DNA from: a virus
Lineage: Duplodnaviria > Heunggongvirae > Uroviricota > Caudoviricetes
Virus record (IMG/VR): IMGVR_UViG_2531839202_000008
Location: 4,798-68,797 of that record
Strand: one strand, 5' to 3'
DNA: 64,000 nucleotides
The first letter of the stretch is position 1; each line of letters starts with the position of its first letter. The notes beneath the pieces were generated by a model. That model was not told the DNA's origin and searched no databases. It saw only the letters and a program-made list of their open reading frames with translations. This document shows, one piece after another, positions 39,993 through 40,865 of the stretch. Both the position numbers and the translations under genes were made by a program.

Positions 39993-40865
39993 TCAGGCGT
40001 CGCGGTACTTGTATCGCAGCGCGCGCACCGAGCTATGGGTTCGCCCCAAGCGCTGGGCGGCCTCAATCACGGTCAGGCTGCGATCCAGCGCGATCTCGAT
40101 ATCGTGGTCGCTCCAGGGTTGCTTGTAGTTGACCGCCGTGTGCCGGGTGGCCTCTTGGCGTCGTAGCCGTTCGGCCTCGGCCGCGTCCCGGCAGCGCGGA
40201 CATAGGCATCCGTATCGGCTCACCGCGGTGTAGGTTCCGTGCATATGTTCAGGGACCTTGCCCTGCAAGCGCCCCAGCCACCGCGCGCGAGCCACAGTCA
40301 CCGAATTGATCGAACGTCCCAACTCGGCGGCAATCTCCGTGGGTGTGCGGGACTCATCGGCCAGGACAGCGATCTCATCCTCAGTCCAGAGGCGCTGCCG
40401 TATCGGCTCCGCTCGCGACTCGCGCGCCGGGATCAAACCCGAGGCCTTTTGGCGCTGCAGCTCTCGAATGTGCTTGATCGCCCTGAAGGAACGTCCCAAC
40501 CGGCGGGCCGCTTCGGCGCGCGATATTGACCGGTCCAGTGCGATCGCGATCTCCTGTGGTGTCCATGACCCATAACAGGCGATGTCGGTCTCGGCCACCC
40601 GCTCTAGCTCGGCTAGGCGACCACGTTTCTGGGCGAGCAGCTGCTCAATATCGCGTCCCCGGTACCGCTTTCGAGCCTTCTCCACCTGTAGCCGGGTGCG
40701 GCCCAACCTCGCTCCGGCCTCGGCGCACGATAGTGACCGATCCAGCGCCACAGCCAGCTCGTCAGCGGTCCACCGACGTGGAGCTACACCATCAGCCACA
40801 CATGACAGGCTACTTCTGCGTCTCCGTGCACACCGTGAACCTGCGCACCGGGTGCGGAAAACCAC
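39993..40865 (-). CDS. DNA-binding protein with four tandem Myb/SANT-like HTH repeats plus CxxC finger
   Basis: four copies of W(T/S)xxE(I/L)A(V/I)ALDRS(L/I)SxxEAAxRLGR(S/T); GTG start overlaps lipoprotein gene (alternative GTG at 40799). Confidence 0.5.
   Translation of the reverse strand: MVFRTRCAGSRCARRRRSSLSCVADGVAPRRWTADELAVALDRSLSCAEAGARLGRTRLQVEKARKRYRGRDIEQLLAQKRGRLAELERVAETDIACYGSWTPQEIAIALDRSISRAEAARRLGRSFRAIKHIRELQRQKASGLIPARESRAEPIRQRLWTEDEIAVLADESRTPTEIAAELGRSINSVTVARARWLGRLQGKVPEHMHGTYTAVSRYGCLCPRCRDAAEAERLRRQEATRHTAVNYKQPWSDHDIEIALDRSLTVIEAAQRLGRTHSSVRALRYKYRDA

Follow-up and report, generated by a model that had tools for sequence, protein, structure and literature searches.

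Gene 28 and its four helix-turn-helix units

The 64,000-nucleotide stretch of caudoviral DNA analysed here (the window; IMG/VR record IMGVR_UViG_2531839202_000008, positions 4,798 to 68,797) carries on its minus strand a gene that encodes a string of four helix-turn-helix (HTH) units and stands last in a gene cassette (Table 1). Positions 30000–50000 of the window correspond to Mycobacterium phage prophiGD43A-3 (MW584182), with 100% identity across the entire query. This phage is a cluster MabC prophage of Mycobacterium abscessus GD43A, integrated at attB-13 (PMC8092301). Window coordinates equal prophage coordinates plus 24912; what precedes the prophage in the window, ~24.9 kb, is presumably host chromosome. 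The gene is gene 28 of prophiGD43A-3, annotated as a hypothetical protein, and it is 94% identical to gene 63 of the released phage phiGD57-1, annotated as a "helix-turn-helix DNA binding domain protein". The papers on M. abscessus prophages list prophiGD43A-3 (cluster MabC, attB-13), and genes 28–31 are not discussed in them.

A sequence-only reading of this DNA had placed the open reading frame (ORF) at 39993–40865. A maximal minus-strand ORF of 290 amino acids (aa) does exist there, but its start was over-extended. The GTG at 40799 agrees with the GenBank annotation and with all homologues and yields a protein of 268 aa, hereafter gp28, while the 66 nt at 40800–40865 belong to the upstream gene 29, whose 3' end is there read in a different frame. 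The pairwise ratio of non-synonymous to synonymous substitutions (dN/dS) is 0.15–0.21 across five loci, at a dS of up to 0.72, and hence the frame is coding and under purifying selection, which settles the earlier proviso that it might turn out to be non-coding. No homologues of gene 28 were found on plasmids.

The proposal of four tandem repeats in one reverse-strand protein is borne out for all six pairs of units. Ungapped unit-versus-unit BLOSUM62 scores range from 58 to 92, with 13–19 identities per 38 residues, whereas shuffled controls reach maxima of 51 or less (0 of 2000 above; unit-versus-unit scores at z 7–13). In hhalign profile–profile comparison of the unit sub-alignments, the nearest equivalent of a HHrepID repeat check that was run, every pair attains a probability of at least 98% (98.2–99.4%, E 5e-14 to 4e-21). 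By the same method the units resemble one another more than they resemble any transposase, which indicates that they are products of an ancient internal duplication. They are, however, not regular units of about 60 aa, as had been described: the conserved unit is only ~38–42 aa long, and the units follow one another at irregular start-to-start distances of 69, 59, and 91 aa, joined by linkers of 31, 21, and 53 aa. Their four recognition helices differ, namely TRLQVEKARKRY, SFRAIKHIRELQ, SINSVTVARARW, and THSSVRALRYKY. Two homologous loci carry lesions in this gene. In a prophage of M. chelonae (locus L007, 8001–8828), the recognition helix of unit 4 has been swapped for an unrelated sequence, and in Mycobacteroides sp. 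CBMA271 (L010, 8001–8757) frameshifts break up the gene, a lesion independent of the former.

The repetition is also visible in the DNA, where the two strings quoted in the sequence-only reading are indeed present on the plus strand, at 40084 and 40534. These 32-mers are identical at 23 of 32 positions, and on the coding strand they encode WSDHDIEIAL and WTPQEIAIAL. Across whole units, DNA identity falls to 46–61%, and by codon position it is 0.56, 0.61, and 0.42, against 0.29, 0.25, and 0.31 expected by chance. Tandem Repeats Finder (TRF) reported no tandem repeat, and a repeat search returned nothing beyond matches of 12–28 nt at 68–88%. The low identity of the units, the codon-position pattern, and the lack of a TRF match together indicate that the DNA-level repeats are the coding shadow of an old duplication at the protein level, rather than a feature in their own right.

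Between units 3 and 4, gp28 holds a cysteine motif, YGCLCPRCR (aa 197–205). It had been described as a CxxC finger within repeat 3; the motif exists, but it lies in the linker and is not a plain CxxC, reading instead CxCxxC, with an invariant His 11 residues before it. Across an alignment of 20 sequences, P183, H187, G188, C198, C200, and C203 are invariant, and the motif belongs to a conserved pattern, PEHxHGT-x9-GCxCxxC, with one invariant His and three invariant Cys. Four conserved candidate metal ligands (H187, C198, C200, and C203) are thus gathered in a compact motif of the kind expected for a knuckle, and its natural reading is a putative His-Cys3 zinc site at the turn between two predicted helices. 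The motif is not confined to this family, as it recurs hundreds of times in proteins of actinobacteria and phages, with the consensus (V)P(E)xxHGTxxGYxxYGCRCxxCxxA (294 occurrences in 186 proteins), where the His precedes the first Cys by 10–11 residues in 240 of the 294. In distant relatives it comes after several HTH units. Among the matches of the profile search, many consist only of two to eight knuckle copies, others carry up to ~11 HTH units, and many are mixed. No Pfam or NCBIfam model covers the motif, and the PHROG families that match it are annotated as HTH DNA binding protein, HNH endonuclease, or integrase.

Table 1. Features of gene 28, its cassette, and the adjoining control sequences, in window coordinates (AF2, AlphaFold2; pLDDT, predicted local distance difference test)
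Feature	Position	Strand	Description
Gene 28	39993..40799	-	268-aa basic protein, pI 10.1, ~30 kDa; four HTH units and one His-Cys3 knuckle; GTG start at 40799, stop at 39993-39995
HTH unit 1	40659..40772	-	aa 10-47, WTADELAVALDRSLSCAEAGARLGRTRLQVEKARKRYR; AF2 helices 12-18, 25-32, 36-45
HTH unit 2	40452..40565	-	aa 79-116, WTPQEIAIALDRSISRAEAARRLGRSFRAIKHIRELQR; AF2 helices 81-87, 94-101, 105-119
HTH unit 3, most divergent	40275..40388	-	aa 138-175, WTEDEIAVLADESRTPTEIAAELGRSINSVTVARARWL; fragment model pLDDT 86-94
Putative zinc knuckle	40191..40253	-	aa 183-203, PEHMHGTYTAVSRYGCLCPRC; fragment pLDDT 82-92; followed by a long helix, aa 201-219
HTH unit 4	40002..40115	-	aa 229-266, WSDHDIEIALDRSLTVIEAAQRLGRTHSSVRALRYKYR; fragment model helices 96-102, 109-116, 120-131
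Gene 29, LppU/SCO3897-family lipoprotein	40810..41367	-	stop 10 nt upstream of the gene 28 start; NCBIfam NF049863 47.2 bits (cut-off 25), lipo_LppU 107.6 bits
Gene 30, candidate immunity protein	41357..41575	-	72-aa protein with two transmembrane segments; variable cassette position
Gene 31, secreted or membrane protein	41584..42678	-	conserved N-terminus, variable C-terminus (here a coiled coil and a glycine-zipper-like hydrophobic hairpin)
Control region	42679..42940	-	travels with the cassette; conserved in every locus with a type 1 or type 2 HTH gene
Promoter-like site TCGACA-18-AATGAT, preceded by TG	42755-42726	-	inside a block conserved in nine loci
Conserved upstream blocks	~42757-42781, 42840-42858, 42902-42909	-	~-103 to -80, -180 to -162, and -231 to -224 from the gene 31 ATG
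Terminator-like GC hairpin and T-run	39806..39823	-	170 nt downstream of the gene 28 stop; consensus scan only

Fold and relatives of gp28

AlphaFold2, run on the 20-sequence alignment, predicts four three-helix bundles that stand apart, with poorly defined linkers between them (mean pLDDT 75, predicted template modelling score 0.34), and a second model restricted to residues 136–268 is confident (pLDDT 87). As modelled, the units come nearest to Myb/SANT domains and to the DNA-binding domain of GcrA, closely followed by EvgA and RcsB (LuxR type), Reb1, the SANT domain of Bdp1, the R2R3-MYB protein WER, and SNAPc4, as well as by Tc3 transposase, homeodomains, and sigma region 4. The whole model, a flexible string of domains, has no significant Foldseek match in the PDB, where the top non-significant matches are sigma factors (probability 0.3 or less, TM-score, a template modelling score, 0.15). 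By sequence, a designed repeat protein is the sole match among solved structures (E 0.003).

The designation "Myb/SANT-like" is therefore fair as a description of the fold, in that the three-helix HTH of the units can be superimposed on Myb/SANT repeats, but it is not selective, and the sequence hallmarks of Myb are missing. Of the three spaced Trp residues of Myb, the units of gp28 keep only the first; the second is Ala or Ile, and the third aromatic position is occupied by Y, Q, W, and Y in units 1 to 4, so that units 1, 3, and 4 retain an aromatic residue there. Compared with the repeats of Cdc5 (6jui), WER (6kks), Reb1 (5eyb), and SNAPc4 (7xur), the units are ~5–10 aa shorter, and gp28 shows no match to Pfam Myb_DNA-binding or Myb_DNA-bind_6 even at E 10. 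P0079, a distant relative with 11 units, does match Myb_DNA-bind_6. Membership of the GcrA family, which requires an N-terminal DNA-binding and a C-terminal sigma-70-binding domain, was likewise rejected: unlike GcrA (PDB 5yiu), gp28 has neither a Pfam GcrA match nor the C-terminal sigma-70-binding domain.

The best Pfam family is HTH_23 (PF13384, homeodomain-like HTH), which matches four stretches of gp28 with 47.8 bits against a cut-off of 24.6 (E 1.1e-12), while HTH_28, HTH_29, and Sigma70_r4_2 stay below threshold. Several other assignments were tried and rejected. The sigma-70 family does not apply, as gp28 has no region 2 and scores 20.2 bits against 25.7 for Sigma70_r4_2 and 12.6 against 25.3 for Sigma70_r3. 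A classification as an IS630/Tc1 transposase fails as well (NF033545, 22.3 bits against a cut-off of 100, N-terminal HTH only, no DDE domain). Readings as a TerS-like protein or as an antirepressor were dismissed by the family tests. The bipartite HTH of Tc1/IS630 transposases (Tc3, PDB 1u78) nevertheless offers a likeness, since it also joins several HTHs by linkers, in that case reading adjacent DNA segments; it differs from gp28 in having two units rather than four, and in belonging to proteins with a DDE domain.

Among phage families, the closest is PHROG 323 ("transcriptional regulator, D5-like"), matched at E 1e-33 by residues 31–279 of the 290-aa ORF over profile positions 7–270 of 319. 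D5 of phage T5, which matches the same family at 1e-71, like gp28 across nearly all of the profile, and holds four similar units in its sequence, is recorded as a DNA-binding protein that both DNA replication and late transcription require; DNA binding by its HTH fold is reported in a 2026 preprint (PMC13405049). Both proteins are alike in size (255 and 268 aa) and in having four tandem units that open with W/F-T-x-x-E and contain ...IA..(L)G(R/K)(S/N).... In contrast to gp28, T5 D5 lacks the His-Cys3 knuckle, and it is an early gene among the replication genes of a virulent phage, whereas gene 28 belongs to a cargo cassette of a prophage. A direct comparison is marginal (BLASTP E 0.014; hhalign probability 6.5%, with one unit aligned), and PHROG 323 acts as a generic tandem-HTH profile, to the point that a protein of 11 units scores 1e-109. 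Accordingly, "D5-like" denotes an analogy of architecture, without demonstrated orthology.

Proteins of this kind had been called unusual in phages, and this does not hold. Besides the PHROG 323 match and the four-unit T5 D5, Foldseek against BFVD retrieves many phage multi-HTH proteins (from the mycobacteriophages Doug and DS6A, Caulobacter phage CcrSC, and a Vibrio phage "D5 protein"), and an exhaustive profile search returns 2751 cluster representatives at E of 1e-3 or less, 322 of them at 1e-10 or less. In this company, gp28 is a fairly ordinary, uncharacterised member of a widespread class of tandem-HTH phage proteins.

The cassette, its cargo slot and its control region

Genes 31-30-29-28 run leftward, opposite to the early genes on one flank and to the late genes on the other. 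The cassette begins with a conserved promoter, followed by the gene of a secreted protein, one or more variable small genes, the gene of an LppU-family lipoprotein, and, last, the multi-HTH gene. All nine independent intact loci also carry a homologue of gene 31, and in seven of the nine an LppU-like gene immediately precedes the multi-HTH gene, at a gap of 10–18 nt; gene 28 is probably translationally coupled. The exceptions are L009, where the LppU gene has been replaced, and L003, where the pair is separated. The C-terminus of the gene 29 family is nearly invariant (...RRFTVCTETQK).

The same arrangement is found in phiGD57-1 (L002), in two prophages of M. chelonae (L007 and L008), in a metagenome-assembled genome of Mycobacterium (L009), in Mycobacteroides sp. 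CBMA271 (L010), and in Mycobacterium sp. D16Q16 and D16Q14 (L004 and L011). In another M. abscessus prophage (L014), which has a 72-aa counterpart of gene 30, the cassette adjoins the terminase genes. L003 represents a rearranged form, in which the multi-HTH gene stands apart from the LppU gene and adjoins a recombinase and an integrase, suggesting an inversion or rearrangement. Genes for serine recombinases (Resolvase and HTH_7) occur near the cassette in three loci outside the MabC cluster, namely L003 (8001–9474), L004 (2734–3387), and L014 (1732–2382). A decayed remnant is present in hundreds of M. abscessus assemblies (L018–L020, for example CP014951, 597265–611768). This MabC-like remnant, with genes 26, 28, and 32 frameshifted or truncated, is indexed in 479 assembly-collection blocks and is thus widespread in the species.

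Homologues of gene 31 in nine loci are 55–86% identical over the N-terminal 150–290 aa, while their C-termini are unrelated. The N-terminus opens with MVMKDRWTMPxGLRR, including an RR pair, and continues with a hydrophobic signal segment and a P/Q-rich region. As for the C-termini, that of L007 matches DUF6973 (65 bits), and that of L008 shows weak, sub-threshold matches to glycine-zipper and bacteriocin IIc families; the C-terminus in the window is rich in Gly and Ala, hydrophobic, and by eye resembles that of L008, without a glycine-zipper-type Pfam match. Weak matches of gene 31 to NheB and xenorhabdolysin were also obtained. The gene or genes that follow vary along with its C-terminus, and in L009 one of them matches SUKH-1 at 17.5 bits, below the cut-off. 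PADLOC found no match among genes 26–32. In architecture, gene 31 resembles a polymorphic toxin.

This architecture invites comparison with a known system of M. abscessus prophages, the WXG-100-type polymorphic toxin–immunity cassettes (Dedrick et al. 2021, PMC8092301). Those are likewise prophage cargo with a conserved N-terminal and a variable C-terminal domain, and in both systems variable small genes lie downstream, some of which encode lipoproteins or membrane proteins. Gene 31, however, has no WXG-100 motif, holding the RR pair and hydrophobic signal instead, and its cassette lies in the middle of the prophage rather than at attR or attL, with a constant pair of LppU and multi-HTH genes at its 3' end. 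The same study does not describe the cassette of genes 28–31, and a paper on S8-PTS polymorphic toxins concerns a different system.

The cassette occupies an exchangeable position. The related MabC prophage prophi104-2 carries a BrnT/BrnA toxin–antitoxin pair at the same place, and its homology to the window stops at 38781 and restarts at 42941, which defines 38782–42940 as a cargo slot. In prophiGD43A-3, the slot is filled by gene 27, which is low in GC, and by the cassette, which brings a control region of 260 bp of its own. Gene 28 is not a core phage gene. Gene 27 (38838–39824, plus strand) encodes a multi-pass membrane protein of 328 aa and has a GC content of 50–54%, against 62–70% for the prophage. 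It has no Pfam, PHROG, or PADLOC match, and it looks like recently acquired cargo of the same slot.

At the 3' border of the cassette, 39898–39988 (plus strand) hold what is left of a gene, a piece of its 5' end (MARPPRDKFPNACVGDLVPN..., ATG at ~39928), which breaks off precisely where gene 28 has its stop codon. L009 has a full homologue of 96 aa, with Cys-rich motifs, upstream of its cassette, and two direct copies of the ~91-bp remnant segment flank the cassette there (4296–4386 and ~8812–8902). This duplicated segment marks the 3' recombination junction of the cassette. The hairpin listed in Table 1 is the probable end of the leftward transcript, and Rfam returned nothing meaningful for 38700–43400.

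The conserved blocks of the promoter are unique within the window. In the 330 bp upstream of gene 31, a search for repeated motifs (k-mers with mismatches) gave nothing above shuffled controls.

Possible functions of gp28

The function proposed for gp28, at roughly even odds, is that of a DNA-binding autoregulator of the cassette, which acts through one long asymmetric site in the control region upstream of gene 31. According to this proposal, a single gp28 polypeptide, probably binding as a monomer, would insert its four recognition helices, which are not identical, into consecutive major grooves along that site. The site itself might correspond to a conserved part of the control region such as the 24-bp block that abuts the -35 element, and its occupation would set the expression level of the cassette, resulting in autoregulation. 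The proposal draws on a coding gene with four homologous HTH units, an HTH_23 score above the cut-off and a basic pI of 10.1, together with the cassette linkage in nine loci, the location in a cargo slot, and a conserved control region with blocks upstream of the -35 element. The differences between the recognition helices also fit the absence of a simple repeated operator. The suggestion of the sequence-only reading that gp28 regulates the cassette is hence plausible for a protein whose gene closes a conserved cassette with its own conserved promoter, but the role is inferred rather than demonstrated.

Several observations weigh against autoregulation. No binding site was identified, and the control region is devoid of a repeated motif above chance. 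In L004 and L014, the promoter blocks are ~80% identical to those of the window, though the HTH protein is only 35% identical, has five units, and carries other recognition helices; in L014, gene 31 is still 62% and gene 29 still 80% identical. A promoter that is kept while the HTH protein diverges is unlike what would be predicted for a tight operator–regulator pair. Moreover, gene 28 is frameshifted in L010 and in L018–L020, while the upstream ORFs of the cassette are intact in L010 and L018, so that the protein is dispensable, at least in decaying copies. Most of the prophage is reported to be transcriptionally silent in the lysogen, a statement that is not specific to genes 28–31 (PMC8092301).

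Part of this evidence also speaks for a less specific activity. As a general DNA binder in the manner of D5, gp28 would cover phage or host DNA or attach to it at many sites, either cooperatively or with little specificity, and what it modulates would be transcription or replication, either of the prophage itself or of a superinfecting phage (exclusion), rather than its own cassette. The absence of a specific operator, the conservation of the promoter despite the divergence of the HTH protein, and the decay of the gene in dead prophage remnants are all in line with this role, as are the match of the whole protein to PHROG 323, the four similar units of T5 D5 and its recorded requirement for replication and late transcription, and the "D5 protein" of a Vibrio phage among the fold matches in BFVD. 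This role is nonetheless unlikely, given that the direct similarity to T5 D5 is weak and covers one unit, that PHROG 323 is generic enough to score a protein of 11 units even higher, and that the gene sits in an exchangeable cargo slot rather than among replication or late genes, without a PADLOC match.

The position of gene 28 at the border of a mobile cassette raises another alternative, in which gp28 derives from a transposase or serves as an accessory to a recombinase, marking the ends of the cassette for exchange between prophages. Its best families are the N-termini of transposases (HTH_23, HTH_28, and HTH_29, and IS630 below threshold), the bipartite DNA-binding domain of Tc3 is among its fold matches, and the cassette is exchanged as a unit whose 3' junction falls exactly at the gene 28 stop, beside the truncated gene remnant that is duplicated in L009; serine recombinase genes also lie within 5 kb in L003, L004, and L014. 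Such a role in mobility is nevertheless quite improbable, as gp28 and the rest of the cassette lack the catalytic domain of a transposase or recombinase, the examined part of the prophage has no annotated recombinase, the units are closer to one another than to any transposase, and the copy in the window lacks inverted or direct terminal repeats. Still further from what the data favour is a decoy of the anti-repressor type or a sigma-like factor, with gp28 titrating a repressor or replacing part of sigma. The decoy had been suggested by the first analysis of the sequence, and sigma factors, which are likewise strings of HTHs, do head the PDB matches of the model, alongside the sub-threshold Sigma70_r4_2 match. 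These structural matches, however, are non-significant (Foldseek probability 0.3 or less, TM-score 0.15), region 2 is missing, and the Sigma70_r4_2 score stays at 20.2 bits against 25.7. The prophage already has an annotated antirepressor, gene 3, and no similarity to antirepressor families was found in Pfam or PHROG. The repeated operator that such a decoy was supposed to bind also failed to appear, with no repeated motif above chance in the control region or nearby. This alternative is highly improbable.

Beyond autoregulation of a single cassette, a wider proposal can be put forward only tentatively, and is itself rather doubtful. Proteins of the gp28 type may be the dedicated DNA-binding part of an undescribed family of polymorphic toxin–immunity cassettes, exported by Sec or Tat, associated with LppU, and exchanged between Mycobacteroides prophages; the knuckle, in turn, may be a new zinc-dependent module for DNA binding or dimerisation, widespread in actinobacteria and phages and missing from domain databases.

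Prophages of M. abscessus, a pathogen that is hard to treat, are known to carry polymorphic toxins linked to ESX. The present analysis points to a second toxin-like cassette, differently built, which lies in the middle of cluster MabC prophages and whose remnant persists in many M. abscessus chromosomes. Taken alone, gp28 is one more uncharacterised tandem-HTH DNA binder in a large class; what is worth following is the cassette that gene 28 closes and the unmodelled HGT...GCRCxxC module. Should gp28 control the cassette, it would offer an experimental handle to turn it on or off. The HGT...GCRCxxC motif, for its part, merits an entry in the domain databases, since it recurs in hundreds of proteins of actinobacteria and phages that are annotated as HNH endonucleases, integrases, or HTH proteins.

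Across the prophage as a whole, a search for short-range direct repeats returned only coding repeats, in gene 31 and in a RepA-like gene. The latter, gene 22 (35858–36787), holds three to four imperfect direct repeats at 36297–36403, with a period of ~33 nt (ACCCTGACGGCACCGTG...), which could be either origin iterons or an 11-aa coding repeat.

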